This document shows positions 1 to 13,352 of a DNA stretch of 64,000 nt, piece by piece. Location: IMG/VR virus record IMGVR_UViG_3300021387_000688. The stretch is one strand, 5' to 3'. The first letter of the stretch is position 1. Every line of letters starts with the position of its first letter. The position numbers and the translations under genes were made by a program. The notes under the pieces were generated by a model. That model saw nothing but the letters and a program-made list of their open reading frames with translations, was not told the origin of the DNA and ran no database searches. The DNA comes from a virus (taxonomy: Duplodnaviria; Caudoviricetes).

Positions 1-65
1 GCGGGTGCCTGCTAAGCATCTGGTTGTCGTAAGACGCCGCGCGAGTTCGAATCTCGCCTCCTCCG
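1..65 (+). tRNA. tRNA-Ser(GCT), 5' truncated by window edge
   Basis: GGTGC-CTGCTAA-GCATC anticodon arm, long variable arm, GCGAG-TTCGAAT-CTCGC T arm, CTCCTCC-G acceptor 3' strand. Confidence 0.9.
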
Positions 66-114
66 TGGAATATAATTTTTTAATGTTTTGAACATGACTA
101 ACTAAATAAATAAT

Positions 115-173
115 GTAGCATAGCAATGTTCCTATTTTTTCTATTTTAAGCAAAGATTTATACATTCCGCTAC
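115..173 (+). ncRNA. Bulged-stem scaffold RNA copy 1
   Basis: GTAGC-ATA-GCAATGT-TCCTATT...TAT-ACATTC-C-GCTAC; divergent member of a six-copy family. Confidence 0.6.
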
Positions 174-195
174 TTTTTATATTAGGAGTTAGAAA

Positions 196-672: not shown

Positions 673-681
673 AAAAATAAC

Positions 682-809
682 ACTGCATAAGTTGTTCCTA
701 TTTAAAAGTATAATTTGCAGAGTAGCTTAATCGGTTAGAGCAACCCACTAAGTGGGAAGATAAGAGTTCGAATCTCTTCTCCGCAGCCAGGTTTTATACA
801 ACTCGCAGT
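682..809 (+). ncRNA. Scaffold RNA copy 2 enclosing a tRNA-like insert
   Basis: ACTGC-ATA-AGTTGT-TCCTATTT...TAT-ACAACT-C-GCAGT flanks a cloverleaf. Confidence 0.75.
716..789 (+). tRNA. tRNA-like RNA with collapsed anticodon loop (no assignable anticodon)
   Basis: D arm GCTT/GAGC, T arm AAGAG-TTCGAAT-CTCTT, encoded CCA; anticodon arm CCCAC-TAA-GTGGG. Confidence 0.65.
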
Positions 810-859
810 TTTTTCATATAACCTTTTTGATCCCTCCTTGCTAAATAATCCCTATAATA

Positions 860-1305
860 AAATTGATAACAACTTGACGGAGTAGAGTCAAGTTTACTAA
901 AAACCTACTCAATTGAGAAAGCAAACTCTAAACTCGTTGGAAAACTTCTAGTGTAGCGTGAATACCTAGAATCGTAACTATTGCGTTGGTATCTATAAGA
1001 CGAAGGTAGAGGAAGTTCCTCTCGCCATTAAAGTGGTACGTGGAAAGCGTATAGCGAGCAAGTTTGAAGTATACGTCGGCTAAAGAGCAAAGATACCTAT
1101 CTGGGACTCTTAGAGGTAGGTACCATAAAAGCCGCATAAGGGTTAAGATTCGATCTACCTTATTCGAATCTGTTGACAGTTTTACCAAGTTGGTCCCTCG
1201 GAAGCCTTGAGAGTGCCGCGGTAGAGTAGAATGCGAGAGCCTTAACGGGACTGCATTTCAGGCGCTGAATACTATGGCAAATAGAAAAACTGCGGGGTTA
1301 AAATT
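860..1305 (+). ncRNA. Putative large structured ncRNA
   Basis: No credible ORF, raised GC, successive hairpins (AACTTGAC/GTCAAGTT, GAGGA/TCCTC, TACCTA/TAGGTA, AGATTCGA/TCGAATCT); strand inferred from context. Confidence 0.45.
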
Positions 1306-1390
1306 ATATAAGGGAATATCCCTTTTGTTTTGTTTTGCCTCTCTACAACGGGTCATGCCGGTAGGGAGGATTATTTTTTAAAGGTGGTTT

Positions 1391-1615
1391 ATGATAGATA
1401 AATCAAAATTGCCAAATTGGATAGGAGTATGGGAAAGAAAAAGCCCGACTTCTAATGCATGGATTAACAAATCTATAATTGCATTAGTCAATGACGACAA
1501 TGTACATTTTGGAATTGCTAAACCTGCAGGAGCTTCTATAAAAAAGGTTTTTTGTTTTTCTAATGAAGACGTTATAAGAGCTATAAAAAGTTTTAGCTTA
1601 AAGAAACCTGAGTAG
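1391..1615 (+). CDS. Hypothetical protein
   Basis: AAGGTGG RBS, 74 aa. Confidence 0.55.
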   Translation: MIDKSKLPNWIGVWERKSPTSNAWINKSIIALVNDDNVHFGIAKPAGASIKKVFCFSNEDVIRAIKSFSLKKPE

Positions 1616-1642
1616 AAGCTATATTAAATTATATTGAACATT

Positions 1643-1719
1643 AGTGCATAAGTTGTTCCTATTTTTAAAGAAGGATACTGGATCCAGGGCGACCTGGATG
1701 ATTATATACAACTCGCACT
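1643..1719 (+). ncRNA. Scaffold RNA copy 3 (GNRA hairpin cargo)
   Basis: AGTGC-ATA-AGTTGT-TCCTATTT...ATCCAGG-GCGA-CCTGGAT...TAT-ACAACT-C-GCACT. Confidence 0.75.
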
Positions 1720-1728
1720 TTTATATTT

Positions 1729-1801
1729 GGTCCCTTAGGCGAGTGGCTAAGCCGTCTCCCTCTCAAGGAGAAGATCACGCGTCCGAATCGCGTAGGGACT
1801 A
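1729..1801 (+). tRNA. tRNA-Glu(CTC)
   Basis: Cloverleaf; TCTCC-CTCTCAA-GGAGA; T loop TCCGAAT. Confidence 0.9.
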
Positions 1802-1815
1802 TAGGATGGTAGGTT

Positions 1816-2226
1816 ATGGACAGAGAACATCGTTTAAAGAAATCACCTATTTACATTTTTTACGCAGATACAGAATCTGGCTACCTACCTATTACTCAAA
1901 AGGGTTTTGATGAAAACAAAACTCTCGGTATATGTTTCAATCCAGAGTACTTTTATGATAAGTACAATCACCGAATCCACACAAAGATTATGTTTTACGG
2001 TGTAAGGAAGAATGTAAGCAATTTTGGACAATATGTACAGATTCATTTGGACCACATTAAAGGGGATATCCAAAAGTATTTTGCAAAACATGGAATAGAA
2101 GGAACTATTCATTATTGCAGAGCAAACTCCAAAAGTTGCCCATTCGGAGTAAGTGCAGTCGATATTGAACGTTACAGAAATAAATCGGCGGACAGATTGA
2201 TGCACTTAAATATTTACGTAAAGTAA
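1816..2226 (+). CDS. Hypothetical protein
   Basis: 136 aa ORF with RBS-like AGG. Confidence 0.6.
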   Translation: MDREHRLKKSPIYIFYADTESGYLPITQKGFDENKTLGICFNPEYFYDKYNHRIHTKIMFYGVRKNVSNFGQYVQIHLDHIKGDIQKYFAKHGIEGTIHYCRANSKSCPFGVSAVDIERYRNKSADRLMHLNIYVK

Positions 2227-2228
2227 TA

Positions 2229-2478
2229 TACCTACAGGAGTCAGTACTTTCACCTAGAATTATACTGAAGGGTCCTTCAACTGATTTATAGTTGGGTAGT
2301 TAGGTGTATATCAAGGAATCTGTGTAGGATTGGGTCGCCCACGGAATTCGGCGCCAAACCCCTAAGAGATTTGTTTATGGTAAGTAGTCGACGTTTTAGT
2401 GGTTCCGCACAAACTAGACGCCCATAATGGAACGGTGCATCTAAACTACATTGCCGGTTCGATACCGGTAGTAGGTAA
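2229..2478 (+). ncRNA. About 250-nt structured RNA with tRNA-like acceptor stem and T arm
   Basis: TACCTAC/GTAGGTA closing stem, GCCGG-TTCGATA-CCGGT T arm, long internal helix and possible pseudoknot. Confidence 0.55.
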
Positions 2479-2492
2479 TTACATATATTTCA

Positions 2493-2522
2493 ACCCCTCT
2501 CGTGAAAGAGGGGTTTCTTTTT
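2493..2522. terminator. Intrinsic terminator between convergent units
   Basis: AACCCCTCT/AGAGGGGTT hairpin followed by T tract. Confidence 0.7.
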
Positions 2523-3537
2523 ACTCTTGAATGTAAGTTGTGTTTCTTCCTGCGTGTTTAGCAGCGTATAGATATGAGTCTAATGTTTTTATATTATCTT
2601 CTAATGAAACTCCATCCTTCCAAAAACAACCTCCTACGGAAATAGTGAATGGAGCTTTTATACTATCTTCTACTCTTGAAAGAGTTAGTATTTTAACTCT
2701 TATATCTTCTGCAATTACTTTTAATTTGTTAAAGTTGGACATTCCTTTTAATACAATAATGAATTCTTCCCCACCGTATCGTATAATTAAATCACCATAC
2801 CTTATACAACTCTTTACAGTTTTAACTAAGAATCTTAAACTTTCATCCCCATTTAAGTGACCATGTTCGTCATTAATTTTTTTGAAGAAATCAATATCAA
2901 TCATTAAAAGACCAGAATCTTTTAAGTTATCTTTACTTAATGCACATCTGTTTTTACAACCGGTTAAAGGATCTATACAAGCTTGATTTTCCAATTTGTT
3001 GTTTATAGTTATCAACGCCTGGGTTGCAAAAGTAACTGAGAATAAAGTAAATACATAAGAAGAAGAGACACCGCCTAATATGAACATTAAGTTTCTTTCC
3101 ATATAATCACTTGGCATGTTAATATGGAAATGCACTTTAATTATTAGAATAACCATTGCAAAGAATAAAGGAAAGATTCCCATCACTGAAAGTATTACGT
3201 TCTTATATCCTACTAATCCAAAAGCCGAACCTAAGATAATCCAATATGTTATGAAAACTGCATCTCTACTTGTAAATAACATTGCTGGAAAAGATATAAA
3301 TGCAGTTACTAAAACTACTAAACAACTATATGCATAATACTTTTTAAGTTTAATCATAATTGCACCTGAAAGTACTATGAAAGTCCAACTAGTTACGTTA
3401 GCAATAAAGTTAACTAATGTAAGTAAGTCTAAATTAAACCCTCTCTGCATAATAATCGGAATCGCGAATCCGTTGGATACTGCACCACAAATTAAGAGAG
3501 TAATAGCTATTAGTTTATCAATATTTTTGTTTCCCAT
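2521..3537 (-). CDS. Membrane-bound diguanylate cyclase (GGDEF domain)
   Basis: Multiple N-terminal TM segments; DPLTG..NR, DIDFFKKINDEHGHLNGD, RYGGEEF, RxxD I-site. Confidence 0.92.
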   Translation of the reverse strand: MGNKNIDKLIAITLLICGAVSNGFAIPIIMQRGFNLDLLTLVNFIANVTSWTFIVLSGAIMIKLKKYYAYSCLVVLVTAFISFPAMLFTSRDAVFITYWIILGSAFGLVGYKNVILSVMGIFPLFFAMVILIIKVHFHINMPSDYMERNLMFILGGVSSSYVFTLFSVTFATQALITINNKLENQACIDPLTGCKNRCALSKDNLKDSGLLMIDIDFFKKINDEHGHLNGDESLRFLVKTVKSCIRYGDLIIRYGGEEFIIVLKGMSNFNKLKVIAEDIRVKILTLSRVEDSIKAPFTISVGGCFWKDGVSLEDNIKTLDSYLYAAKHAGRNTTYIQE

Positions 3538-3605
3538 TTTAGTAATTTTTATTCCTCTGATTCTCTATATTGTAATATACAATATAATAAGTGGAGGTAT
3601 TATCG

Positions 3606-4271
3606 ATGGCACACAACTTTCAAAAAATCTATGCACCGTTTGGTCGTAAGAATCCAAACGATCGTCTTGTAGACACATCAATTTATTCTCGGGGCTGGGT
3701 TCAGATGTTTTACGAAAACAATGTAAAGATGAAGGCATCTGAAAAGATTGACGGAACTTCTGTAGGTATTGTTTGGGATGGAGAAAGAATCTCCTTCATT
3801 GGACATACAGAAAAGTCTCAGTTTGCTCCTCGTTATCTTGAATATCTTAACAGCCGTTTTGGTACTCCTGAATTCGAATCTGTAGTAGAAGAGATTGCAG
3901 GTGACAAAAAGGTTACAATCTACGGTGAAGGTATCTCAAAGGATTACAATGTTCACTACGGTTTCCCAGATGGTGAATTTATCCTTTACGATATCCAGAA
4001 AGAAGATGGTACATTCTGGTGCCGCGAAGCTGTTGCAAGTGTAGCTACAAAACTTGGCATGATTATGCCTTGGGAAACAGATATGACTATTCAGGAAGCA
4101 ATCGACTTCGTAAAGACTCGTCCAGCATCTAAGCTTAATCCTGAAAACAAAATGGAAGGTTTGGTACTTCGTTCACCAATTGAACTTTACAGCGCTAATC
4201 ATTTTGAGCGCATTATTTGTAAAGTTAAGGTAAAGGATTTCGTAGACCTTAAGGATTACAGGACTGAGTAA
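3606..4271 (+). CDS. RNA ligase (Rnl2-like nucleotidyltransferase)
   Basis: Motif I EKIDGT, YGE, EGLVLR, C-terminal CKVK. Confidence 0.8.
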   Translation: MAHNFQKIYAPFGRKNPNDRLVDTSIYSRGWVQMFYENNVKMKASEKIDGTSVGIVWDGERISFIGHTEKSQFAPRYLEYLNSRFGTPEFESVVEEIAGDKKVTIYGEGISKDYNVHYGFPDGEFILYDIQKEDGTFWCREAVASVATKLGMIMPWETDMTIQEAIDFVKTRPASKLNPENKMEGLVLRSPIELYSANHFERIICKVKVKDFVDLKDYRTE

Positions 4272-4369
4272 TGAACATTACTGAAATCTTAATCTATACA
4301 GGGCTTAACATTAAGCCCTTAGTAAATATTTTTGATAAGAAAATCTTAAATTGGTAGGAGAAAAAAAAT

Positions 4370-4648
4370 ATGAAAACTTTTGTTAAAGAATTTAATTATC
4401 CAGATTCAAAGACAGGAGAAGCAAAGGCTCGCCGCCTTTTGGTATTGAATGAAGATGCAACTCGCTTTGGTGGAATCGACCTTTCTACTGTAACTCCAGA
4501 AGAAGAAGCAACTCTTGTAAAGAATTTTGCAGAAAGAGATATTACAGATTTTTCTCGCAAGCCAAAAACAGAAGGACTTGAAGAAAAACCTACCCCAAAA
4601 ATTGGAATGTATAAAGCGTTCTCTAAATCTAAGATCTTGGAGTCATAA
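4370..4648 (+). CDS. Hypothetical protein
   Basis: AGGAG RBS, 92 aa. Confidence 0.7.
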   Translation: MKTFVKEFNYPDSKTGEAKARRLLVLNEDATRFGGIDLSTVTPEEEATLVKNFAERDITDFSRKPKTEGLEEKPTPKIGMYKAFSKSKILES

Positions 4649-4649
4649 G

Positions 4650-5015
4650 ATGGATGAAGAAATTTCTAATGCAAAAATCGTTGGCACCAAATTAGGATTC
4701 GATGACCATGGCTTCTTCACATTTAGTATTGCAGTAGAAGGAGATGGCTTTGGATGTAACCTAGGAGGATATGCATTATCCTGTTATGATAAAGCCACAC
4801 TTAAACGTAAAGGTTCTGAATACGGATTGAATGTTATTATGCGCATACTTGAAGTCGTTGGAGTAGAACATTGGGAAGATCTTAAAGGCAAATATGTAAG
4901 AGTAACCCATAGTGGTCCAGGTTCAACTATGCATACCATTGGTAATATCATTAAAGATGAATGGATTGATTTCAGAACCTATAGAGAAGGATTAGAAGAT
5001 GGCGACGAGGGTTGA
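4650..5015 (+). CDS. Conserved phage hypothetical protein
   Basis: GGAG RBS; tightly packed operon. Confidence 0.7.
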   Translation: MDEEISNAKIVGTKLGFDDHGFFTFSIAVEGDGFGCNLGGYALSCYDKATLKRKGSEYGLNVIMRILEVVGVEHWEDLKGKYVRVTHSGPGSTMHTIGNIIKDEWIDFRTYREGLEDGDEG

Positions 5016-5298
5016 AAAGGATCAATATACAAGATGGTGGGTTGAAGGAGATGAACTACATGCTAGTTTTGCAGATTATGTAGTTTTCATAAAACCAGAT
5101 ACTCGTATGAAGTTTCCTCACGATGCCGGAATCGTATATTTTATCACTTTTAGTAAAGGATCTGGTTATCCATGGATAAAGCCTATTAAAAAAGATACTT
5201 TGGAAGAAGCCATTCAATTCGTACACGAATATGAAGATCAGAAAAAATATGATCAATTAATGGACGCTTTAATTAAAGATGGTTATTTAGAAAAGTAA
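4999..5298 (+). CDS. Hypothetical protein
   Basis: Overlapping start/stop, 99 aa. Confidence 0.65.
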   Translation: MATRVEKDQYTRWWVEGDELHASFADYVVFIKPDTRMKFPHDAGIVYFITFSKGSGYPWIKPIKKDTLEEAIQFVHEYEDQKKYDQLMDALIKDGYLEK

Positions 5299-5358
5299 TC
5301 ATTCTCTATATTACTTAAACCTATTACTGATAGCTAGTACTATCATAAGGAGTTGAAT

Positions 5359-6081
5359 ATGTCTAGACATACAGGTAAATGCGATTTTGAAGATTGGTGC
5401 GAAATGCATAATTCTCCTTCAGAAATCGTAGAAAAAGCAACAATCTACCTTGGGGACGCCAAAGTAGATATTAAAAATGAAAAGGATTTAATTCCTTATT
5501 ACACTCACCTTATTGCTTCAATGTGTTGCATTAAAGATGAAGGCCAAACTATAAACCTTTCAAGTCATTCTTTTATTGACGGTGAAGAAGAAGAATTTAT
5601 GACTTGGAGAATCAGAGATGTCATTGCAGCCGCCAGAAAAGCAAAGAAAGAAAAGAAACCCTTCACTTTTGAATATTTCAAAAATTGGAAATACTATGAT
5701 CCTTTTGGATCTACCCCTCAGTTTGTTTGGGAAGAGTTGATTAAAATAGTTAACGATAATCCTGATATTATTAAGATGCATCTCCCTTCTGATTACAGAG
5801 ATTGTGAGTATTTTATGCACAGGTGGGTTATTCCTAAATACTTTTACAAAGTTCACGATCCAATGCACAATAGATACCGCGAAGAGTTTATCAAGTTTGC
5901 AAAAGAAAATGGCTATTCTGTACTCGAACCTAGAGACAAAGGTATCCAGAATGCCGAAAGAACTGAAGGAATTGCACATCCAGTAATTACTCATATGTGC
6001 ATTGCTGTAATTGATTTTTATGAAATGCAGAATCGTTTTGATTACAAATCAAGTGAAGAAGCTTACAATATAGGTGGGTAA
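5359..6081 (+). CDS. Hypothetical protein
   Basis: AAGGAG RBS, about 240 aa. Confidence 0.75.
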   Translation: MSRHTGKCDFEDWCEMHNSPSEIVEKATIYLGDAKVDIKNEKDLIPYYTHLIASMCCIKDEGQTINLSSHSFIDGEEEEFMTWRIRDVIAAARKAKKEKKPFTFEYFKNWKYYDPFGSTPQFVWEELIKIVNDNPDIIKMHLPSDYRDCEYFMHRWVIPKYFYKVHDPMHNRYREEFIKFAKENGYSVLEPRDKGIQNAERTEGIAHPVITHMCIAVIDFYEMQNRFDYKSSEEAYNIGG

Positions 6082-6082
6082 A

Positions 6083-6298
6083 ATGGAAGTAACAGAAGAG
6101 CAGTTGAACCAGCTTTATAAAAATGTAAGTATTGCAATGAAAAACTTTCCTCAATTAAGATATGGCCAGGCTATGTTCAATGAAGCGCATTCTTTGTGGC
6201 CAGAGGAAGTAAATAAGATTAGGGGAACTAATGATGACTGTTTTTACAACGATGATTTAGTTTCTAAGTTTTTATCTCATTTTGAATTAAAGAGGTAG
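6083..6298 (+). CDS. Hypothetical protein (LRYGQ motif)
   Basis: Operon packing. Confidence 0.65.
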   Translation: MEVTEEQLNQLYKNVSIAMKNFPQLRYGQAMFNEAHSLWPEEVNKIRGTNDDCFYNDDLVSKFLSHFELKR

Positions 6299-6301
6299 TG
6301 T

Positions 6302-6595
6302 ATGCCAAAACATAATGATCTTGAAGAAGTACAGAATCTAGAAATTAATGGATTCGAATTTACAAAAGATGTGCAGACCGATGTAAACACTCAAACTTAT
6401 GCAAGAGGTGGAGATGCTTATGCAGATGATTGGATTGAAATTATTCCAGATATGTCAGGTACTCCTCACCGTTATGTTGTAAGGTTTATTAAAGACTGTT
6501 CCGATATTGGGGTATATGTTTACGATTGGGCTCCAGATAAAAGTATTAAAGAATGGCTCAATGAAAAAATTGGAATGTATTACAAGGAGGATTAA
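6302..6595 (+). CDS. Hypothetical protein
   Basis: GAGGT RBS. Confidence 0.65.
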   Translation: MPKHNDLEEVQNLEINGFEFTKDVQTDVNTQTYARGGDAYADDWIEIIPDMSGTPHRYVVRFIKDCSDIGVYVYDWAPDKSIKEWLNEKIGMYYKED

Positions 6596-7189
6596 ATGTT
6601 TTATCCTAATGGCAGTTATAGACTTGATCAGTTGATTAGAGATTTCGAAAGCGGGGACTTCGATATCTATCTTGAAAAGAATATAGAGACTCCAAAAGAT
6701 TGGGACCCATCTAAGGGATTTCCTAGAGGACCAAGAACCCTTATCAAAACAATGGATGAATTAAAAGACGCCGTTATAAAAGATATGGGAAAAGAATATA
6801 CAATTTGTATCGATACTCGCCCTTCTTATTTTGAAAAACATCCATATGAAGGAGAAGAGAAATCTTATATTAAAGAAATCTTCAAATGGGAATATTCTTC
6901 ACCTTGGGGAGAAAAGAGATGTTATGCAATTAGAGATAGTTCTTATCTTCCAGGATATGAACCTAAACATAAATCTCTTAGTCTTGATTGTTACGAAGAT
7001 GGATTCCAGGGAACTTGTTTCTCAATTGGTACTTGGGAAAGAGATAGTGAAGGTTATGAATTTAGGTCTGTAGGTAACAGACTTTTCAAATATGTAGATC
7101 TTAGGGACATTGTCATTCTTTGGAAGGCAATTCATGCAGCTAATAATTACTTGGAAGAAAGATTCAAGGAAGAAAAGGACGAAGACTAA
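6596..7189 (+). CDS. Hypothetical protein
   Basis: GGAGG RBS, 197 aa. Confidence 0.7.
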   Translation: MFYPNGSYRLDQLIRDFESGDFDIYLEKNIETPKDWDPSKGFPRGPRTLIKTMDELKDAVIKDMGKEYTICIDTRPSYFEKHPYEGEEKSYIKEIFKWEYSSPWGEKRCYAIRDSSYLPGYEPKHKSLSLDCYEDGFQGTCFSIGTWERDSEGYEFRSVGNRLFKYVDLRDIVILWKAIHAANNYLEERFKEEKDED

Positions 7190-7617
7190 TGAAAGTTTAC
7201 CTTAGTGGACCTATCTCGACTGATAAGGAACATTACAAAGAACATTTTGCAGCCGCAGAAAAGTATTTAACTGAAAAAGGTTATGAAGTAACAAACCCTG
7301 CCAAAGATGAATACGATGATGAAATCTATGAAAAAGGTCATACAGATAAATGGACTTTAGATGCCTGGCTCGATTATATGAAAAGAGATATCGAACTTAC
7401 TTCTAAACATGACGCCATTTGCCTTTTAGTAGGTTGGCGTGATAGTCCAGGTGCTATTATCGAACTCATGACTGCAAAGAAGTTTGGGCTTGAATTGATA
7501 GAAGAGTCCAAGTTTACTCCTTCTATAAAAAGAGAATACGAATACTATTCTAGAGGTAAGGAATGGGAAGTAATTGATATGCCTATAAAATCAAAAGGAA
7601 GAAAAAAGGAGATTTAA
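7189..7617 (+). CDS. DUF4406 / nucleoside 2-deoxyribosyltransferase-like protein
   Basis: KVYLSGPIS, NPA, DAICLL.GW..SPGA..E motifs. Confidence 0.75.
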   Translation: MKVYLSGPISTDKEHYKEHFAAAEKYLTEKGYEVTNPAKDEYDDEIYEKGHTDKWTLDAWLDYMKRDIELTSKHDAICLLVGWRDSPGAIIELMTAKKFGLELIEESKFTPSIKREYEYYSRGKEWEVIDMPIKSKGRKKEI

Positions 7618-7618
7618 G

Positions 7619-7897
7619 ATGCAGGATGCAACAAAAGAACCTAAAATGTTTAAGAAGAAACCGGTATCGATTCGGGCAATGAAATGGACCGGAAAGAACA
7701 TTGATGAGATTACAGTTTTTTCAAAAGGCGATGCTTTTTTGGACGGAGATGAACTTGTAATTAAAACATTGGAAGATGGTAAAACAGGAAAAGCAAAGCA
7801 TGTGGCTTCGGTAGGGGATTATATTATTGAAGGTGTACATGGAGAGTTTTATTTCTGTAAACCAGACATCTTTGAAGAAACTTACGAAGATGCATAA
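7619..7897 (+). CDS. Conserved phage protein (KKPV..GDYII.G..GEFY.CKPDIF family)
   Basis: Recognisable family motif. Confidence 0.7.
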   Translation: MQDATKEPKMFKKKPVSIRAMKWTGKNIDEITVFSKGDAFLDGDELVIKTLEDGKTGKAKHVASVGDYIIEGVHGEFYFCKPDIFEETYEDA

Positions 7898-7900
7898 AAA

Positions 7901-7946
7901 GAAAACATTTTAGAAAACTTAACCGTTTGCACTAACTATATTAAGA
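7901..7946 (+). promoter_or_regulatory. Conserved promoter box of tRNA array 1
   Basis: 42/46 nt identical to 10146-10191. Confidence 0.75.
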
Positions 7947-7968
7947 TATGTTAAAAGGAGACAGAAAT

Positions 7969-8088
7969 ATGATGTTTATATCAAACGAAACATTTGAAAC
8001 ACTGATTGTAACACAGAATCATATGTCTGGCCTTTTTTCAGGCTCGAAAGGGTTCCGTTCCCTTACACAGGGAGGAAAATCCGATTAG
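7969..8088 (+). CDS. Leader peptide 1 (39 aa; Gly/Ser/Leu/Gln/Arg-codon rich)
   Basis: AAGGAG RBS; MMFISNETFETLIVTQNHMSGLFSGSKGFRSLTQGGKSD; stop abuts antiterminator. Confidence 0.8.
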   Translation: MMFISNETFETLIVTQNHMSGLFSGSKGFRSLTQGGKSD

Positions 8089-8140
8089 GGGTTTCTTACA
8101 GTTAAGGAATTGTAAGGAACTCGAAAGAGTTCCTTTTTTT
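8089..8140 (+). terminator. Attenuator 1: antiterminator 8089-8122 versus terminator 8114-8140
   Basis: GGGTTTCTTACAGTT/AATTGTAAGGAACTC overlaps AAGGAACTC-GAAA-GAGTTCCTT-T tract. Confidence 0.85.
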
Positions 8141-8156
8141 ATTCCTTTTTAATTTT

Positions 8157-8230
8157 GCGGGTGTAACTCAGATGGCTAGAGTGTCGTCCTTCCAAGTCGA
8201 ATGTCAAGGGTTCGAATCCCTCCACCCGCT
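8157..8230 (+). tRNA. tRNA-Gly(TCC)
   Basis: Cloverleaf, loop CTTCCAA. Confidence 0.92.
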
Positions 8231-8236
8231 CTTTAT

Positions 8237-8308
8237 CGCGTAGTCATTCAGTGGCTAGGATCTCTGTCTTCCAAACAGGTGACGAGGGTTCGATTCCCTC
8301 CTGCGCGA
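8237..8308 (+). tRNA. tRNA-Gly(TCC)
   Basis: Cloverleaf, TCTGT-CTTCCAA-ACAGG. Confidence 0.88.
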
Positions 8309-8316
8309 CTATATAT

Positions 8317-8390
8317 GTCTCATTAGTGTTAGCGGCTTAGCACCCTAGTCCTCCAAACTGGGAGCATCGGTTCGAATCCGATATGGGGCT
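8317..8390 (+). tRNA. tRNA-Gly(TCC), C33
   Basis: Cloverleaf, loop CCTCCAA. Confidence 0.85.
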
Positions 8391-8393
8391 TGG

Positions 8394-8476
8394 TACATAA
8401 AGGTTTCGTTTAGAAGATTGCTGCACCTTTAAGCAGGCTGAAACGAATAGAAACTGAATCGAAAGATTCTAATGTA
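8394..8476 (+). ncRNA. Pseudoknotted spacer RNA
   Basis: TACAT/ATGTA, TTCGTTT/AAACGAA, loop ACCTTTA complementary to TAAAGGT, GAATC-GAAA-GATTC. Confidence 0.45.
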
Positions 8477-8502
8477 GGAGTAAGCATAAGAATCTTATGA
8501 AT

Positions 8503-8576
8503 GCCTCGGTACTCCAACTGGCAGAGAGGACGGACTTAGAATCCGTAAAGTGAGAGTTCGAATCTCTCTCGGGGCA
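8503..8576 (+). tRNA. tRNA-Leu(TAG), short variable loop
   Basis: ACGGA-CTTAGAA-TCCGT; 5-nt variable region. Confidence 0.88.
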
Positions 8577-8582
8577 AATTAT

Positions 8583-8667
8583 GGAGCCTGGCTAGGACGG
8601 TAATAGGTATGCCTGGAAAGCATATGGTCGCGAAAGCGCCTAAAGGGTTCGACCCCCTTAGACTCCG
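8583..8667 (+). tRNA. tRNA-Ser(GGA)
   Basis: TATGC-CTGGAAA-GCATA, long variable arm, G73. Confidence 0.88.
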
Positions 8668-8682
8668 TAGGAGGGAAATTAT

Positions 8683-8778
8683 ATGAAAGGTAAACTTCAC
8701 AAACTGTGGGTTAAGTTTGTAATAGGGATTGTTTATATTTATATAAAAATCACTAATATCTTTCATAAGAAAAAATAG
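8683..8778 (+). CDS. Small cationic/hydrophobic peptide (31 aa)
   Basis: AGGAGG RBS; MKGKLHKLWVKFVIGIVYIYIKITNIFHKKK. Confidence 0.5.
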   Translation: MKGKLHKLWVKFVIGIVYIYIKITNIFHKKK

Positions 8779-8785
8779 AATTTAT

Positions 8786-8870
8786 GGATCGTTAAGTTAG
8801 CGGCTATACAGGGTGACTTGAAATCACTTTACGTGGCAACACGGCGCAAGTTCGAGTCTTGCACGATCCG
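8786..8870 (+). tRNA. tRNA-Ser(TGA)
   Basis: GGTGA-CTTGAAA-TCACT, long variable arm, G73. Confidence 0.88.
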
Positions 8871-8885
8871 CTCTAATTAAAAAAG

Positions 8886-9069
8886 TTGGGTAAACCTCGA
8901 CCCAGTTGGATTCCTTCCTGAATAGGATTCAATGTTAAGGACTAGAGGAATTTACAGAAACTGCTTTAAGTAGCAAGTTCTCGAAAGATCGTTTATTCCC
9001 CCTCCCTAAAACGATTGAGTAGCTTTACGAGTGAATATAAGGGGTAGCTCTAAGTGGGTCAGGCCACTC
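8886..9069 (+). ncRNA. Putative multi-pseudoknot ncRNA
   Basis: Hairpins TTGGGT/ACCCAG, GATCGTTT/AAACGATT, AGTGG/CCACT with loop segments complementary to downstream GAGG, AAGGA and AGGGG. Confidence 0.4.
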
Positions 9070-9077
9070 CCTGTTAT

Positions 9078-9148
9078 GTACCTGTAGTATAACGGTAATA
9101 CGCGACCTTGCCAAGGTCGAGTCGAGGGTTCAACTCCCTTCAGGTGCT
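9078..9148 (+). tRNA. tRNA-Gly(GCC)
   Basis: CGACC-TTGCCAA-GGTCG. Confidence 0.92.
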
Positions 9149-9150
9149 CT

Positions 9151-9230
9151 AAATCAAAATGGCCAGGGAGCCCTAACGGATGCTGGGCGGCTTAATGATG
9201 TTACTGAATGGTGGTAACCCATTTTGATTT
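9151..9230 (+). ncRNA. Structured spacer RNA
   Basis: 12-bp closing stem AAATCAAAATGG/CCATTTTGATTT around CCAG/CTGG with GAGCC:GGCTT pseudoknot potential. Confidence 0.5.
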
Positions 9231-9238
9231 AATTTTAC

Positions 9239-9310
9239 TCCTCCGTGGTGTAATTGGTAACACGCGAGATTCTGGTTCTTGAATTCTGGGTTCGAGTCCT
9301 AGCGGAGGAA
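9239..9310 (+). tRNA. tRNA-Gln(CTG)
   Basis: CGAGA-TTCTGGT-TCTTG. Confidence 0.9.
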
Positions 9311-9358
9311 AGCACATTTGCCGAGGCCTACTAGCGAAACGAAGAGACGGCAATCTTG

Positions 9359-9440
9359 GAGGAGTAGTGAAAAATGGTTGTAGGGATAAGGAACTTCTGT
9401 TGCCGCGGAAAAACAAGAGTGGGTTCGATTCGCCACCCTC
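9359..9440 (+). pseudogene. Degenerate tRNA-like sequence
   Basis: T-arm-like GTGGGTTCGATTCGCCAC and TTCTG/CGGAA arm; D arm and acceptor defective. Confidence 0.35.
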
Positions 9441-9448
9441 GGAATTAT

Positions 9449-9522
9449 GGGATCGTAGCATAACTGGATAATGCACATGTCTACGAAACATGCGATTGGG
9501 AATTCGAATTTCCCCGATCCCA
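9449..9522 (+). tRNA. tRNA-Arg(ACG)
   Basis: CATGT-CTACGAA-ACATG. Confidence 0.9.
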
Positions 9523-9558
9523 CTATAAGGAGATTTGCTTATGAAGTTTCATTAGGAT

Positions 9559-9804
9559 ATGTATAGAAGATATCCTAAAAAACAAGATCACGGTACACGT
9601 GGATCAAAAAGCGAGTCATTGCTCTATTGGGGCAATTATAAGAAGGGTCTAAGATTATCTGCAAAGGAATATTTTAGACAATATAAGCATAGAGTTAAAC
9701 AAGCTCTAAAAGTAATTACTATTGAATGTACTGACGAAGAAGTTGAAGAATTCTATTTAAGGAGTCAGCATCGGGTTCAGGATCAATGGTATGAATTTGA
9801 TTAA
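9559..9804 (+). CDS. Small basic protein preceded by in-frame mini-ORF MKFH-TAG (9541-9555)
   Basis: 81 aa; the strong RBS sits in front of ATG 9541. Confidence 0.6.
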   Translation: MYRRYPKKQDHGTRGSKSESLLYWGNYKKGLRLSAKEYFRQYKHRVKQALKVITIECTDEEVEEFYLRSQHRVQDQWYEFD

Positions 9805-9807
9805 AGC

Positions 9808-9930
9808 ACTTGCGACCTAGTCAAGTATAAAAGTACATTAGGCGGCACTAATCGATCTGCCATAGAAATGATCGAGAGACCTTTGACAGTTAAAACGGAG
9901 AAGTCAATAGTAATATTGTTAAACTGTCAA
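9808..9930 (+). ncRNA. Pseudoknotted spacer RNA
   Basis: ACTTG/CAAGT hairpin with loop CCTAGT complementary to ATTAGG; TCGATC/GATCGA; TTGACAGTT/AACTGTCAA. Confidence 0.4.
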
Positions 9931-9936
9931 TATTAT

Positions 9937-10018
9937 GCTTCAGTGGTGGAATTGGTATGCACACCTGTTTAAGGGGCAGGCGCCGAAAGGATTGAGAGTT
10001 CGAATCTCTCCTGGAGCA
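9937..10018 (+). tRNA. tRNA-Leu(AAG)
   Basis: CCTGT-TTAAGGG-GCAGG, long variable arm, A73. Confidence 0.85.
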
Positions 10019-10028
10019 CTAATTTATA

Positions 10029-10156
10029 AAAATGTTTTCAAAGTGCCTAACGCAACACCGACGCGCTATGCGGGAGCGAGGAGTAAAATAAAGCAGTCCT
10101 ATGTAAGTAGGAAACAGGCAACGGTAACGATCCTGGTGGAATGTTGAAAACATTTT
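10029..10156 (+). ncRNA. Structured spacer RNA
   Basis: 13-bp closing stem AAAATGTTTTCAA/TTGAAAACATTTT, TGCCT/AGGCA, GTAA tetraloops. Confidence 0.5.
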
Positions 10157-10191
10157 AGAAAAATTAACAAGTTGCACTAACTATATTAAGA
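10146..10191 (+). promoter_or_regulatory. Conserved promoter box of tRNA array 2
   Basis: 42/46 nt identical to 7901-7946. Confidence 0.75.
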
Positions 10192-10247
10192 ATATAAGTT
10201 TTAAGTAACTTGTAAACAAAGACTTGATATAAAGGAGTATGTATATT

Positions 10248-10364
10248 ATGATGAACGTATTTAACACTACAACTAAAACAACTACAAAGCATAATCATAT
10301 GAATATGCATACATTCACAAACACAAATAAATTTTTCTTTAATAAGAAAAATGGAGTGAGTTAA
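10248..10364 (+). CDS. Leader peptide 2 (38 aa; Thr/Asn/Lys/Phe/Met/His rich)
   Basis: AAGGAG RBS; MMNVFNTTTKTTTKHNHMNMHTFTNTNKFFFNKKNGVS; stop lies inside the antiterminator. Confidence 0.85.
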   Translation: MMNVFNTTTKTTTKHNHMNMHTFTNTNKFFFNKKNGVS

Positions 10365-10423
10365 GTCTTTTAATTTTATCCGAATTTTAGAAGGCTTAAC
10401 TCGAAAGGGTTAAGCCTTTTTTT
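10358..10423 (+). terminator. Attenuator 2: antiterminator 10358-10402 versus terminator 10391-10423
   Basis: GAGTTAAGTCTTTTAA/TTAGAAGGCTTAACTC overlaps AAGGCTTAACTC-GAAA-GGGTTAAGCCTT-T tract. Confidence 0.85.
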
Positions 10424-10437
10424 ATTGGATTTTTTAT

Positions 10438-10523
10438 GCTACAGTCGCATAGTGGTTGATTGCACCGGATTTGTAATCCGGTAGGTTTATAGCCTCGCGG
10501 GGGTTCGAATCCCTCCTGTAGCT
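10438..10523 (+). tRNA. tRNA-Thr(TGT) with long variable arm
   Basis: CCGGA-TTTGTAA-TCCGG, GCU/AGC acceptor, AGGT/GCCT variable stem. Confidence 0.82.
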
Positions 10524-10526
10524 TAT

Positions 10527-10596
10527 AAAAGCACAAGTTGTTCCTATTTGCTGATGAAGCAATACACTGTTAATGTATTTGATACAACTCGCTTTT
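10527..10596 (+). ncRNA. Scaffold RNA copy 4 carrying an Asn(GTT) anticodon stem-loop
   Basis: AAAAGC-ACA-AGTTGT-TCCTATTT...AATACA-CTGTTAA-TGTATT...AT-ACAACT-C-GCTTTT. Confidence 0.75.
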
Positions 10597-10604
10597 AATT
10601 TTAT

Positions 10605-10679
10605 GGTGCCTATGGTGGAGTGGTCTAACACGCTTGACTGTGGATCAAGATTTCGTCGGTTCGAACCCGACTAGGTACC
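10605..10679 (+). tRNA. tRNA-His(GTG)
   Basis: G-1:C73, CTTGA-CTGTGGA-TCAAG. Confidence 0.92.
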
Positions 10680-10693
10680 CTCAAATGTAATTT

Positions 10694-10767
10694 GGTCCGT
10701 TAGCTCTAATGGTCAGAGCGGATGCCCGTTAAGCATATGGTTGCAGGTTCGAGTCCTGCACGGACCG
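10694..10767 (+). tRNA. tRNA-Asn(GTT), C33
   Basis: Loop CCGTTAA, G73. Confidence 0.88.
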
Positions 10768-10777
10768 TATATTTTAT

Positions 10778-10852
10778 GCTACGTTAGCTCTTAACGGCTA
10801 GAGCGCCTGACCTGTAATCAGGATGTTGGGGGTTCGAATCCCTCACGTAGCT
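10778..10852 (+). tRNA. tRNA-Thr(TGT), C33
   Basis: CCTGA-CCTGTAA-TCAGG. Confidence 0.88.
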
Positions 10853-10859
10853 TATTTAT

Positions 10860-10930
10860 CCGCAGGTCGCCTAATGGTAAGGCCTCTGACTGAAGATCAG
10901 AAGTTTGGGGTTCGATTCCCTGTCTGCGGG
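10860..10930 (+). tRNA. tRNA-Phe(GAA), G37/G73 variant
   Basis: TCTGA-CTGAAGA-TCAGA. Confidence 0.8.
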
Positions 10931-10935
10931 CTTAT

Positions 10936-11009
10936 GTTGAGGTAGCAAAGTTGGTCAATTGCGATGGACTGAAAATCCATTGATGTGAGTTCGATTCTCA
11001 CCCTCAACA
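10936..11009 (+). tRNA. tRNA-Phe(GAA)
   Basis: ATGGA-CTGAAAA-TCCAT. Confidence 0.9.
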
Positions 11010-11015
11010 ACGCAT

Positions 11016-11090
11016 GCTACTTTAGCTCAAATTGGTTAGAGCACGAGTTTCGTAAACTTGGGGTTACAAGTTCGAATCTTGTAAGTAGCT
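11016..11090 (+). tRNA. tRNA-Thr(CGT)
   Basis: CGAGT-TTCGTAA-ACTTG. Confidence 0.9.
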
Positions 11091-11108
11091 TGATAAGGAG
11101 ATTTTTTT

Positions 11109-11276
11109 ATGGATTGTGGAGCTCCAAGAATTGAAGGTCCAATGGCTAAAAAGGTTTATGAATACATGATTAATGAATCTGAAAAAGCCAAAGCCAATAA
11201 AGAATCTAGAGAGGAAAAACGAAAGAAACGTTTAAAGGAATTTGAAGAACTTATGAAGAAGAAACAGAGGGCTTAA
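11109..11276 (+). CDS. Small charged hypothetical protein (55 aa)
   Basis: AAGGAG RBS; MDCGAPRIEGPMAKK...KKKQRA. Confidence 0.6.
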   Translation: MDCGAPRIEGPMAKKVYEYMINESEKAKANKESREEKRKKRLKEFEELMKKKQRA

Positions 11277-11344
11277 CCTTCTATTCAGCCCATTGGAATT
11301 GAAGGTGCCCAGATTAGATGGAAAAGACATTTTCAATTTTTAAT

Positions 11345-11419
11345 GGACTACTAGCGCAACTTGGTTAGAGCACGTGCCTTTTAAGCATGGGGTTCTGGGT
11401 TCAAATCCCAGGTAGTTCA
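11345..11419 (+). tRNA. tRNA-Lys(TTT)
   Basis: CGTGC-CTTTTAA-GCATG. Confidence 0.9.
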
Positions 11420-11434
11420 CTTCCGATTTATTTC

Positions 11435-11507
11435 GGGCCCGTAGCTCAATTGGCAGAGCAATACACTTTTAATGTATGGGTCGACAGTTCGAATCTGTCC
11501 GGGCTCA
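11435..11507 (+). tRNA. tRNA-Lys(TTT)
   Basis: ATACA-CTTTTAA-TGTAT. Confidence 0.92.
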
Positions 11508-11521
11508 CTTCGATTTTATAT

Positions 11522-11596
11522 CGGCCTGTAGCGCAACTTGGTTAGAGCGAGTGCCTCTTAAGCATTAGGTTCTGGGTTCAAATCCCAGCAGGCTGA
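11522..11596 (+). tRNA. tRNA-Lys(CTT)
   Basis: AGTGC-CTCTTAA-GCATT. Confidence 0.9.
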
Positions 11597-11603
11597 CTTA
11601 TTT

Positions 11604-11682
11604 GGGCCTTTGTCAGAATGGGATTGGAACACACTTTTAATGTGTCGCGAAAGCAGAGCGGGTTCGATTCCCGCAGGGCTCA
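11604..11682 (+). tRNA. tRNA-Lys(TTT) with extended variable arm
   Basis: ACACA-CTTTTAA-TGTGT followed by GC-GAAA-GC arm. Confidence 0.8.
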
Positions 11683-11684
11683 AC

Positions 11685-11766
11685 GGGCCATTGATCGCAG
11701 AATGGGATTGCAACAGACTCTTAATCTGTTTCTTCGGAAGACTAGGTTCGATTCCTAGATGGCTCA
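11685..11766 (+). tRNA. tRNA-Lys(CTT) with extended variable arm
   Basis: ACAGA-CTCTTAA-TCTGT followed by TC-TTCG-GA arm; extra nt before D stem. Confidence 0.75.
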
Positions 11767-11827
11767 TCAAAAGTAAGTAGAGTTCTCGAGACAACGCTTA
11801 CTATATTTAATTTGAATTTGATATATG

Positions 11828-11900
11828 CAGCTTATAGCTCAACTTGGTAGAGCCGTGGCCACTTAATTACGGGTTGGAGGTTCAAATCCTTCTAAGCTGC
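11828..11900 (+). tRNA. tRNA-like RNA with aberrant anticodon arm (CTT-containing 8-nt loop)
   Basis: Good acceptor, D and T arms; CGTGG-CCACTTAA-TTACG. Confidence 0.6.
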
Positions 11901-11920
11901 CTTATACAAATATGATATAT

Positions 11921-11992
11921 GGGTCCTTCGTATATCGGTTAGTACTGCAGACTGTTAATCTGCGTGGGTAGGTTCGACTCCTACAGGACCCG
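11921..11992 (+). tRNA. tRNA-Asn(GTT)
   Basis: GCAGA-CTGTTAA-TCTGC, G73. Confidence 0.9.
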
Positions 11993-11999
11993 CTAAAAT

Positions 12000-12127
12000 A
12001 AAATTGCACAAGTTGTTCCTATTTTTTAGGCTCATAACCCGAAAGCGGTGGTTCGATTCCATCTCCCCTTGTCTTCGTAAGGGGATAGTGTAGTGGTAGC
12101 ACGGCGTATTATACAACTCGCAATTTT
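12000..12127 (+). ncRNA. Scaffold RNA copy 5 carrying a circularly permuted tRNA (Y RNA/YrlA-like topology)
   Basis: Order: CAT anticodon loop, T arm, acceptor TCCCCTT-loop-AAGGGGA, D arm, all inside the scaffold stem. Confidence 0.75.
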
Positions 12128-12131
12128 TTAT

Positions 12132-12204
12132 GCTGGGTAAGTTCATATGGTTGAACGCCGCCCTCATAAGGCGGATGTACGTGGTTCGAGTCCACGACTC
12201 AGTA
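12132..12204 (+). tRNA. tRNA-CAT (Met or Ile2)
   Basis: CCGCC-CTCATAA-GGCGG. Confidence 0.85.
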
Positions 12205-12210
12205 AATTAT

Positions 12211-12281
12211 GCTAGCTTCGTACAGTGGTAGTACACATGCATGGTAAGCATGTAATGAGGGTTCGATTCCCCCAGTTAGCT
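12211..12281 (+). tRNA. tRNA-Thr(GGT)
   Basis: CATGC-ATGGTAA-GCATG. Confidence 0.85.
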
Positions 12282-12283
12282 CT

Positions 12284-12343
12284 AATGCATAAAGTGTTCC
12301 TATTAAAAACTTGACTGAAAATCAATTGTATACACTTCGCATT
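12284..12343 (+). ncRNA. Scaffold RNA copy 6 carrying a Phe(GAA) anticodon stem-loop
   Basis: AATGC-ATA-AAGTGT-TCCTATT...TTGA-CTGAAAA-TCAA...TAT-ACACTT-C-GCATT (compensatory changes). Confidence 0.75.
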
Positions 12344-12382
12344 TTTCTATTCTTTTAAGGGGCCGGCGGCCCCTATTTTTAT

Positions 12383-12457
12383 GGTTGCGTAGCTCAACTG
12401 GATAGTAGCAATGGACTTCGAATCCATAGGTTGTAGGTTCAAATCCTATCGCAATCA
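12383..12457 (+). tRNA. tRNA-Arg(TCG)
   Basis: ATGGA-CTTCGAA-TCCAT. Confidence 0.88.
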
Positions 12458-12515
12458 AAACCTTTTCGAAAATCTGATTCCCGGATTCCGCTATATTATT
12501 ACTGAGGTACTTAAT

Positions 12516-13352
12516 ATGGCAAAAGAGAAATATTTCCGTTCACTTCCAGATCAGCTTTATCTTTACAAGAGATTTGATTCAGTTGGAAAAAAGGAAGGTT
12601 GTGAGTGCGATGAATGCGGGGCTTGGTTACAGAATATTGTAACTGTAGTAGGTTCTGTTGATCACTTGGAATATCATCTCGGCCTTACATGTTGTGAAAA
12701 ATCATCAAAGGGTATGAAGAATATCAACTTGGATGATAAAACAACTCAATATGTTAAGTACTGGAAGAAAAGATTAAATCAGCTTAAAAACTTCCGCAAG
12801 GATTTCGATAAGAAAATGGCTTACGGAAAGGTAATTGCAATTCTTGGTAGCTTCTATTATAACGTTCAAAAGAAAACCACTTCAATCGATTTTACTTTCC
12901 TCTATGAAGGGGGAGATTGGTGGCGCATGAATAACGACGTTTCAATCACAGGTTATTACAATAAAGTAAAAGAAACTTTTGCAGATGTTTGGGATGCGAT
13001 TGATTGGAAAGGATATGAAGGTTGTGCAGCCGCTGCAACTTCAAAAGAAGTTTGGGATATCCTCCATGACAATTCTCGTAACGTTCGTTTAAGAGATTTC
13101 AATAAAAGAACAGAAGAAGACTATCCCGAATGGGAACGTTATAACATAGTTAGAAATGCAATCCGCCAGTCTTTTGATTACAATAGCGGTTGGGGCGAAG
13201 GTAAAACTATTAAGCTTCCCGTTTGGTTCAACAAAGATGAATATGACGACATCTTTGATAAAGTACTTGCAAGTTATAATGGATATCAGAATCTGGATAA
13301 AACAACTTTCATCAATGGATACGATGCAGAAAAAATGTCCCGATACAACTAA
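12516..13352 (+). CDS. Hypothetical protein with CxxC..CC zinc-finger-like N-terminus
   Basis: GAGGT RBS at MAKEK; CDECG and CC motifs. Confidence 0.7.
   Translation: MAKEKYFRSLPDQLYLYKRFDSVGKKEGCECDECGAWLQNIVTVVGSVDHLEYHLGLTCCEKSSKGMKNINLDDKTTQYVKYWKKRLNQLKNFRKDFDKKMAYGKVIAILGSFYYNVQKKTTSIDFTFLYEGGDWWRMNNDVSITGYYNKVKETFADVWDAIDWKGYEGCAAAATSKEVWDILHDNSRNVRLRDFNKRTEEDYPEWERYNIVRNAIRQSFDYNSGWGEGKTIKLPVWFNKDEYDDIFDKVLASYNGYQNLDKTTFINGYDAEKMSRYN

Follow-up and report, generated by a model that had tools for sequence, protein, structure and literature searches.

The stretch of DNA analysed here (hereafter the window) comprises 64,000 nucleotides (nt) of the IMG/VR virus record IMGVR_UViG_3300021387_000688. 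It is part of a large tailed phage (Caudoviricetes) and encodes a baseplate wedge protein. The source is an uncultured giant phage; the stretch is also present in sheep-gut sequencing runs, and public assemblies contain near-identical contigs of 355 to 397 kilobases (kb). According to ARAGORN, the window holds 29 transfer RNA (tRNA) genes, all of them on the plus strand and within the first 12.5 kb. The present analysis concerns two units of this tRNA region, each composed of a leader and the tRNA array behind it, whose leaders are candidate attenuators of transcription. Their components, which include a short upstream open reading frame (uORF) with its ribosome-binding site (RBS) and two overlapping hairpins with stems given in base pairs (bp), are the following:

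7901..7946, plus strand: conserved box 1, putative promoter, identical to box 2 at 42 of 46 positions
7955-7960, plus strand: RBS 1, AAGGAG, 8 nt 5' of the ATGATG start
7969..8088, plus strand: leader uORF 1, 39 codons plus TAG (translation P0001)
8089..8122, plus strand: antiterminator 1, 8089-8103 paired with 8108-8122, 15 bp, AAGG loop, -15.9 kcal/mol
8114..8142, plus strand: intrinsic terminator 1, 9-bp stem (8114-8135), GAAA loop, run of seven T, -12.5 kcal/mol
8157..10019, plus strand: tRNA array 1 (ARAGORN, with Rfam tRNA matches), with small open reading frames (ORFs) and spacers between the genes
10146..10191, plus strand: conserved box 2, putative promoter, with the same 42/46 identity to box 1
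10232-10237, plus strand: RBS 2, AAGGAG, 10 nt 5' of the ATGATG at 10248
10248..10364, plus strand: leader uORF 2, 38 codons plus TAA (residues 4-41 of translation P0002)
10358..10402, plus strand: antiterminator 2, 10358-10373 paired with 10387-10402, 16 bp including two G-U, -18.1 kcal/mol
10389..10427, plus strand: intrinsic terminator 2, 13-14-bp stem (10389-10420), GAAA loop, run of seven T, -18.9 kcal/mol
10438..12282, plus strand: tRNA array 2 (ARAGORN, with Rfam tRNA matches), including a 55-amino-acid (aa) ORF and non-tRNA elements
12358-12374, plus strand: GC-rich terminator-like hairpin downstream of array 2, with a T-run to 12381
12382-12458, plus strand: Arg(tcg) tRNA, beyond that hairpin

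The two units share one anatomy, as the initial annotation had proposed. Its description of a 46-nt box, an AAGGAG RBS, and uORFs of 38 to 39 codons, both predicted to start with MM and both containing AAT-CAT-ATG, is borne out by the alignment of the boxes and by the coordinates. The same holds for the succession of an antiterminator of 15 to 16 bp touching the stop codon, an overlapping GAAA-capped terminator, and then a tRNA array. The antiterminator of unit 1 begins one base past the stop codon of uORF 1, and the stop codon of uORF 2 lies inside the 5' strand of antiterminator 2. An in-frame ATG at 10239 was rejected as the start of uORF 2 because it lies too near RBS 2. Antiterminator and terminator overlap by 9 nt in unit 1 (8114-8122) and by 14 nt in unit 2, and the terminator stem is followed by the first tRNA after 21 nt (unit 1) or 17 nt (unit 2). 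Such a gap leaves no room for a promoter; thus, the arrays should be transcribable only through the terminators. No terminator-like site was found between array 1 and unit 2, and the hairpin with its T-run at 12358..12381 is the likely end of the unit-2 transcript. Searches of positions 1-13000 against Rfam returned neither a T-box nor any other known leader family at E<=1.

A 45-nt pattern of the conserved box has exactly two sites in the 64 kb (0 expected), and an exact 20-mer of the box gave no match in IMG/VR. A related core, ACTAACTAwwTwA, occurs at position 97 of the window and upstream of leaders in other phages. This third copy in the window (66-118, plus strand; ACTAACTAAATAA) follows the tRNA at 1-65 and precedes a scaffold element, described below, and an ORF at 196-672, with no leader. 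Its position there suggests that the box serves as a promoter for the whole tRNA region. As a separate candidate, a sigma-70-like match (10/12) at 10224-10252 was considered as a bypass promoter and discarded, because it has no counterpart in unit 1 and its transcript, devoid of an RBS, would still meet the terminator.

Evidence for the function of the leaders comes from their codons. Array 1 contains three Gly(tcc) genes, Leu(tag), Ser(gga), Ser(tga), Gly(gcc), Gln(ctg), Arg(acg), and Leu(aag). Array 2 contains Thr(tgt) twice, His, Asn twice, Phe twice, Thr(cgt), five Lys(ttt/ctt), Met(cat), Thr(ggt), and one odd tRNA with an 8-nt anticodon loop. Codon reading was scored with standard wobble rules, and codon windows of the same size from the phage's own long ORFs served as a control. 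Array 2 reads 34 of the 38 codons of leader 2, while array 1 reads only 1 of the 38 (binomial P = 5e-15). None of 11,989 coding-sequence windows of 38 codons reaches 34, the maximum being 22. Leader 2 is of low complexity, with Thr, Asn, Lys, Phe, His, and Met making up 34 of its 38 residues. The sole amino acid of array 2 missing from this leader is the Arg of Arg(tcg), whose gene lies past the hairpin at 12358-12374. For leader 1, array 1 reads 17 of 39 codons, 14 of which fall in codons 20-38 (P = 1e-8); here, none of 12,749 coding-sequence windows reaches 14 and the maximum is 10. For both matches, the empirical P is below 1e-4. Comparison of both leaders with both arrays gave a Fisher P of 3.6e-6.

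The correspondence extends to synonymous codons. In leader 1, CUN accounts for all three Leu codons, UCN for all six Ser codons, CGU for the single Arg codon, and CAG for both Gln codons, so that 12/12 codons for these four amino acids fit the anticodon families of array 1 (joint P = 2.3e-4). By contrast, the genes of the phage favor UUR (66%), AGR (71%), and CAA (58%). Since the synonymous codons of leader 1 follow the anticodons and not the usage of the phage, selection appears to act on decoding of the codons and not on the peptide.

The folding of the leaders was computed with the ribosome simulated as a masked 28-nt footprint, moved codon by codon. Relative to shuffled controls, both leader regions form more stable structures (z = -3.4 for unit 1 and -5.5 for unit 2), and, in an RNA ending at the 5' strand of the terminator, the antiterminator is the minimum free energy fold in both units. 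As isolated helices, antiterminator and terminator have energies of -15.9 versus -12.5 kcal/mol in unit 1 and -18.1 versus -18.9 kcal/mol in unit 2. With the ribosomal A site at codons 3-38 of unit 1, the antiterminator has a probability of 0.7-0.97; with the A site at codon 39 or at the stop codon, it is the terminator that forms, with a probability of 0.84-0.92 (0.92 at the stop). The terminator of unit 2 likewise reaches 0.95-0.96 over the last five ribosome positions (0.96 at the stop).

The same arrangement recurs outside the window. Near-identical genomes carry a third unit, U0, directly 5' of the window (contig L305, 6320-9871, with its leader at 6389-6508); position 1 of the window corresponds to L305 9806, and window 1-65 is a partial tRNA of the U0 array. 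This unit has the same box core, AAGGAG, a 39-codon leader, an antiterminator strand across the TGA stop codon, and then a terminator. Its leader is rich in Ile, Ala, Val, Glu, Asp, and Pro, and its array comprises Val, Glu, Asp, Ala, Pro, Ile, Met, and Ser(gct); 30 of 38 leader residues match this array, against fractions of 0.18 and 0.11 for arrays 1 and 2. Taken together, units U0, 1, and 2 of the phage serve at least 17 amino acids.

Furthermore, the GAAA-capped terminator pattern was found at 33 loci in IMG/VR, 8 of them with tRNAs downstream; in metagenome contigs, the same pattern hit mostly unrelated terminators, with nothing new among the matches listed. Two homologous leaders, A and B, on other giant-phage contigs from IMG/VR and metagenomes, have a GAAA-capped terminator 7-8 nt before their tRNA blocks. 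They are rich in Ala, Ser, Gly, Leu, Lys, Phe, Cys, and His, and the tRNAs of their blocks are for just these amino acids, the rare Cys and His among them. Leader C, a second leader in the phages with leader B, starts with MM and is composed of Asn, Thr, Glu, Arg, Tyr, Pro, Gln, Asp, and Trp; the block behind it carries Glu, Asn, Pro, Asp, Tyr, Thr, Arg, Ser, Trp, and Gln. The antiterminator strand is placed on or at the stop codon in U0, units 1 and 2, and C. By folding, the switch is clear in unit 1 and C, kinetic in unit 2, and ambiguous in A and B.

Across the six units, the amino acids of each array are all present in its own leader, with two exceptions. The initial annotation had proposed a permutation test of leader codons against anticodons in related phages, and the matching does recur: when the six leaders are scored against the six arrays, no other of the 720 possible assignments exceeds the true one, and the sole tie is the swap of the homologous A and B. 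Leader C is also followed by about 490 nt of apparently structured non-coding sequence between the terminator and the first tRNA (L137 2140-2676, plus strand; L016, minus strand, at the equivalent place), for which Rfam gave no match.

Conservation in relatives distinguishes the switch from the coding sequence beside it. In the relative L276, whose upstream 92-aa protein is 79% identical to that of this phage, the stretch from stop codon to tRNA start, terminator 1 included, is identical at 71 of 71 nt, while identity is 88-90% in the flanking uORF and 82-95% in the three Gly tRNAs. Variants of leader 1 change up to 8 of the 39 residues next to an invariant non-coding switch. Nearly every substitution keeps to the tRNA sets (Ile to Lys or Thr, Ile to Phe, Val to Thr, Gly to Asn, and Phe to Ser), and the sole CGY Arg codon shifts from position 30 to 16. 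In unit 2, which is 97% conserved, a TAA-to-TGA change in relatives retains the antiterminator pair as G-U. At identities of 70% or below, homologues of the upstream 92-aa protein no longer adjoin tRNAs.

Considering the anatomy of the units, the codon match at both the amino-acid and the synonymous level, the conservation of the switch, and its replication in other units, we consider units 1 and 2 likely to be attenuators of transcription, of the ribosome-mediated (leader-peptide) kind, each with a block of tRNA genes under its control. The initial annotation had put forward attenuation of this kind, with tRNA as the output, and the computations support it. The phage would thus probably make a given tRNA block only when ribosomes decode the matching codons slowly. 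Transcription would begin at the conserved box, and the leader would be translated from the ATGATG start behind AAGGAG. As RNA polymerase leaves the uORF, the antiterminator is predicted to fold first, being the most stable nascent fold in the computations. A prompt ribosome on the last codons or the stop would then cover the 5' strand of the antiterminator, an occupancy whose effect is seen in the simulations, and the GAAA-capped terminator would fold and end transcription before the tRNAs. If charged tRNAs are scarce and the ribosome is delayed anywhere in the leader, the antiterminator would persist and the array would be transcribed. The codons of the leader are those that the downstream tRNAs decode, and newly made tRNAs would therefore speed the translation of the leader and shut the unit off. 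Each tRNA block would in this way have its own homeostat of decoding capacity, working by negative feedback. Any drop in decoding speed during infection could act as the trigger, either from loss or cleavage of host tRNAs or from a mismatch between codon demand and supply.

It is important to consider the observations that weigh against attenuation. Leader 1 fits its own array only in its second half, the first half consisting mostly of array-2 codons. The claim of the initial annotation that each leader matches its own array therefore stands for leader 2 (34/38) and for the second half of leader 1 (14/19), and it does not stand for the first half of leader 1. Both arrays combined read 33 of the 39 codons of leader 1. 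As no terminator-like site separates the units and transcripts of unit 1 would continue into unit 2, our reading is that leader 1 reports on both sets; alternatively, its mixed codons could reflect a shared ancestry of the two leaders, which have the MM start and AAT-CAT-ATG in common. In unit 2, the equilibrium favors the terminator (about 0.7) at most stall positions, and the antiterminator dominates only at codons 32-34. A kinetic argument is thus needed, in which the antiterminator forms first and must be pre-empted; the trp attenuator of Escherichia coli, where 3:4 is more stable than 2:3, is kinetic in the same way.

The fate of an untranslated leader is a further point against attenuation. 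With no ribosome present, unit 1 still folds the antiterminator (0.89), and hairpins are present within both uORFs. Unlike the enterobacterial attenuators, the phage units have no clear 1:2 anti-antiterminator, so an untranslated phage leader would be expected to read through, which differs from trp. The alternative helix of units A and B has no more than 1-4 nt in common with the terminator, an overlap so marginal that folding does not establish their switch. Moreover, the conserved box contains no recognizable sigma-70 promoter, and in a sigma-70 scan promoter-like sites were no commoner than in shuffled sequence. Finally, transcription and translation are poorly coupled in Bacillus, and a similar host would make the timing less favorable.

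Related sequence was also present in two sheep-gut metatranscriptome runs (X6 and X8), in the form of assembled contigs only. One RNA-library contig of 210 nt matches 7962-8171 with no differences and crosses terminator 1 into the first tRNA; a second spans 10104-10288 and crosses box 2. Both are consistent with read-through and with a joint transcript of array 1 and unit 2, although they give no more than a weak hint, and they count among the reservations in that they show no 3' ends, strand, or level and could derive from DNA carry-over.

Three other explanations deserve attention, the first of which accepts the attenuators and differs in their trigger. The units could be a dedicated counter-defence switch fired by host anticodon nucleases (PrrC, RloC, PARIS, or colicin-like) that cleave the tRNAs for these codons, with nuclease-resistant phage tRNAs supplied on demand; the initial annotation had named such cleavage as an example of a trigger. 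Array 2 is indeed dominated by copies of Lys(ttt/ctt) together with Asn and Thr, and tRNAs for Lys, Asn, and Thr are typical targets of anticodon nucleases. An RNA-ligase gene also lies 4 kb upstream, the arrays carry odd anticodon loops, long variable arms, and minis resembling anticodon stem-loops, and the number of Lys tRNA copies varies from strain to strain. However, the units span at least 17 amino acids, far beyond the known nuclease targets, so general control of supply fits better than a nuclease-specific trigger, and we judge this dedicated role unlikely.

Sensing would be absent altogether if the hairpins were constitutive, partly leaky terminators, or elements of processing or stability, that set boundaries or dosage beside untranslated or irrelevant uORFs. 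A hairpin with a T-run is what an ordinary terminator looks like, and the equilibrium folding in unit 2, A, and B mostly favors the terminator at any ribosome position. Nevertheless, such elements would leave unexplained the strong RBS with its ATGATG start, the extreme codon-anticodon match down to the synonymous level, the recurrent placement of the antiterminator strand on the stop codon (U0, units 1 and 2, and C), and six independent matches between leader and array, which makes them improbable. Still less credible is a role of the uORFs as genes for small functional peptides, such as membrane or regulatory micro-proteins, co-transcribed with the tRNAs and matching them in composition as a by-product. 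Gene callers do predict genes of 38-46 aa in relatives, and leaders A and B are conserved as peptides. On the contrary, leader 2 draws 34 of its 38 residues from six amino acids, variants of leader 1 differ at 8 of 39 residues beside an invariant non-coding switch, the synonymous choice tracks anticodons and not phage usage, and the composition changes with the array across six units.

The mechanism class proposed here is textbook leader-peptide attenuation; the new part is that tRNA genes are the output, for which we found no published account. In enterobacteria, leader-peptide attenuators (trpL, hisL, pheL, thrL, leuL, and the multivalent ilvGMEDA and thr) control amino-acid operons. As in those systems, the phage units have an RBS and a short ORF rich in regulatory codons, antiterminator and terminator share one strand, and a ribosome near the stop would decide between them; one leader sensing several amino acids has its parallel in ilv and thr. 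Unlike those systems, the output is tRNA genes and not biosynthetic enzymes, so the loop would close on decoding capacity. Nearly the whole phage leader would be regulatory (up to 34 of 38 codons, covering 6-10 amino acids) instead of a short run, and the units are phage-borne, in several paralogous copies that partition the amino acids.

Attenuation of the phenylalanyl-tRNA synthetase operon pheST of E. coli, through the pheM leader and charged tRNA, is comparable in that a component of the translation apparatus is under a leader peptide sensing the cognate charged tRNA; its product, however, is a protein (an aminoacyl-tRNA synthetase), its signal a single amino acid, and its setting a cellular genome. 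T-box riboswitches also couple tRNA status to read-through of an intrinsic terminator before translation-related genes, but in them a single uncharged tRNA is the ligand, contacted directly by a specifier codon and by the T-box sequence, and translation is not involved. The phage tRNA arrays of T4, T5, mycobacteriophages, and vibriophages resemble the present ones in their large clusters, duplicates, unusual anticodon loops, and an adjoining RNA-ligase gene, whereas the published discussions consulted concern why phages carry tRNAs (codon-usage compensation and counter-defence). Neither full-text searches nor an opinion article and a 2026 preprint on phage tRNAs described attenuators, leaders, or terminators controlling tRNA genes, in agreement with the initial annotation, which knew of no such attenuator. 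Additionally, a megablast search of positions 7000-13000 against GenBank phages gave 58 nt of tRNA-Gly as its sole match.

Several other features of the tRNA region accompany the units. Two genes upstream of them are listed here:

2521-3537, minus strand: GGDEF gene
3591-4271, about 4 kb upstream of the units: gene with an RNA-ligase domain (PF09414)

Among the tRNAs, the gene with the 8-nt anticodon loop (11828-11901, plus strand), for which ARAGORN gives the anticodon 'actt', is kept in all relatives. Long variable arms are found in Thr(tgt) (10438-10523) and in two Lys tRNAs (11603-11766), all on the plus strand and 82-86 nt long. Such unusual tRNAs, whether by their anticodon loop or by their variable arm, may be nuclease-evading variants. 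Small ORFs stand between the tRNAs at 8683-8778, 9559-9804, and 11109-11276 (plus strand), with products of 31 aa (hydrophobic), 81 aa, and 55 aa (rich in Lys and Glu); an identical 55-aa product is encoded on at least 24 contigs.

The arrays are plastic among near-identical strains, with differences at window 8390-8397 and 11345-11770, at L288 6439-7083, and at 3276-4079 in L285 and L289. Lys tRNA genes number 5, 2, or 1 depending on the strain, and an 868-nt insertion occurs 3' of the third Gly tRNA. ORFs resembling DUF559/NUMOD3 homing endonucleases also interrupt the arrays. The leaders are unchanged among these strains.

A clamp-like scaffold motif is confined to the tRNA region, where it has six copies on the plus strand (113-178, 683-812, 1644-1722, 10527-10597, 12004-12130, and 12285-12352). 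It consists of a 5' arm (GCAyAAGTTGT followed by TCCTATT), a variable insert, a 3' arm (TATACAACTCGCA), and a T-run. The arms covary, AGTTGT/ACAACT alternating with ATGT/ACAT, and with AGTAGT/ACTACT and AATGT/ACATT in other phages. The inserts range from a tRNA-like gene (716-789) through plain hairpins and minis resembling anticodon stem-loops, with GTT- and GAA-type loops, to a permuted tRNA. Rfam gave no match for the motif, and a 14-mer search returned mostly chance matches.

The permuted insert, at 12022-12110 on the plus strand, is an apparent circularly permuted tRNA(CAU) within one scaffold. Its parts run in the order anticodon arm, T arm, 3' acceptor strand, 11-nt linker, 5' acceptor strand, and D arm; when the halves are rejoined in silico, ARAGORN recognizes a tRNA-Met-like cloverleaf for nearly all junction choices. 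The scaffold helix would juxtapose the ends at the break, and the phage has the RNA-ligase gene at 3591-4271.

Why and how phages use tRNA genes is a long-standing question, and to our knowledge the regulation of phage tRNA arrays is essentially unstudied. If the interpretation as attenuators is true, a leader written in the codons of its array would mean that the phage gauges how fast codons are decoded and makes tRNAs when they are needed, and the hypotheses of codon compensation and counter-defence would become directly testable. Classical attenuation, associated with amino-acid and synthetase genes, would then reach RNA genes of the translation machinery as well, and compact, programmable sensors of the speed at which particular codons are translated would become available. 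More broadly, we lean towards the view that giant phages possess a modular homeostat of decoding capacity. Paralogous units, at least three in this phage, would split the amino acids among them, each timing its own codon set and transcribing only the matching block, so that the phage could notice when specific host tRNAs are depleted or cleaved and make good the loss. Such regulation of tRNA genes would be of an undescribed form, apparently widespread in uncultured large phages.

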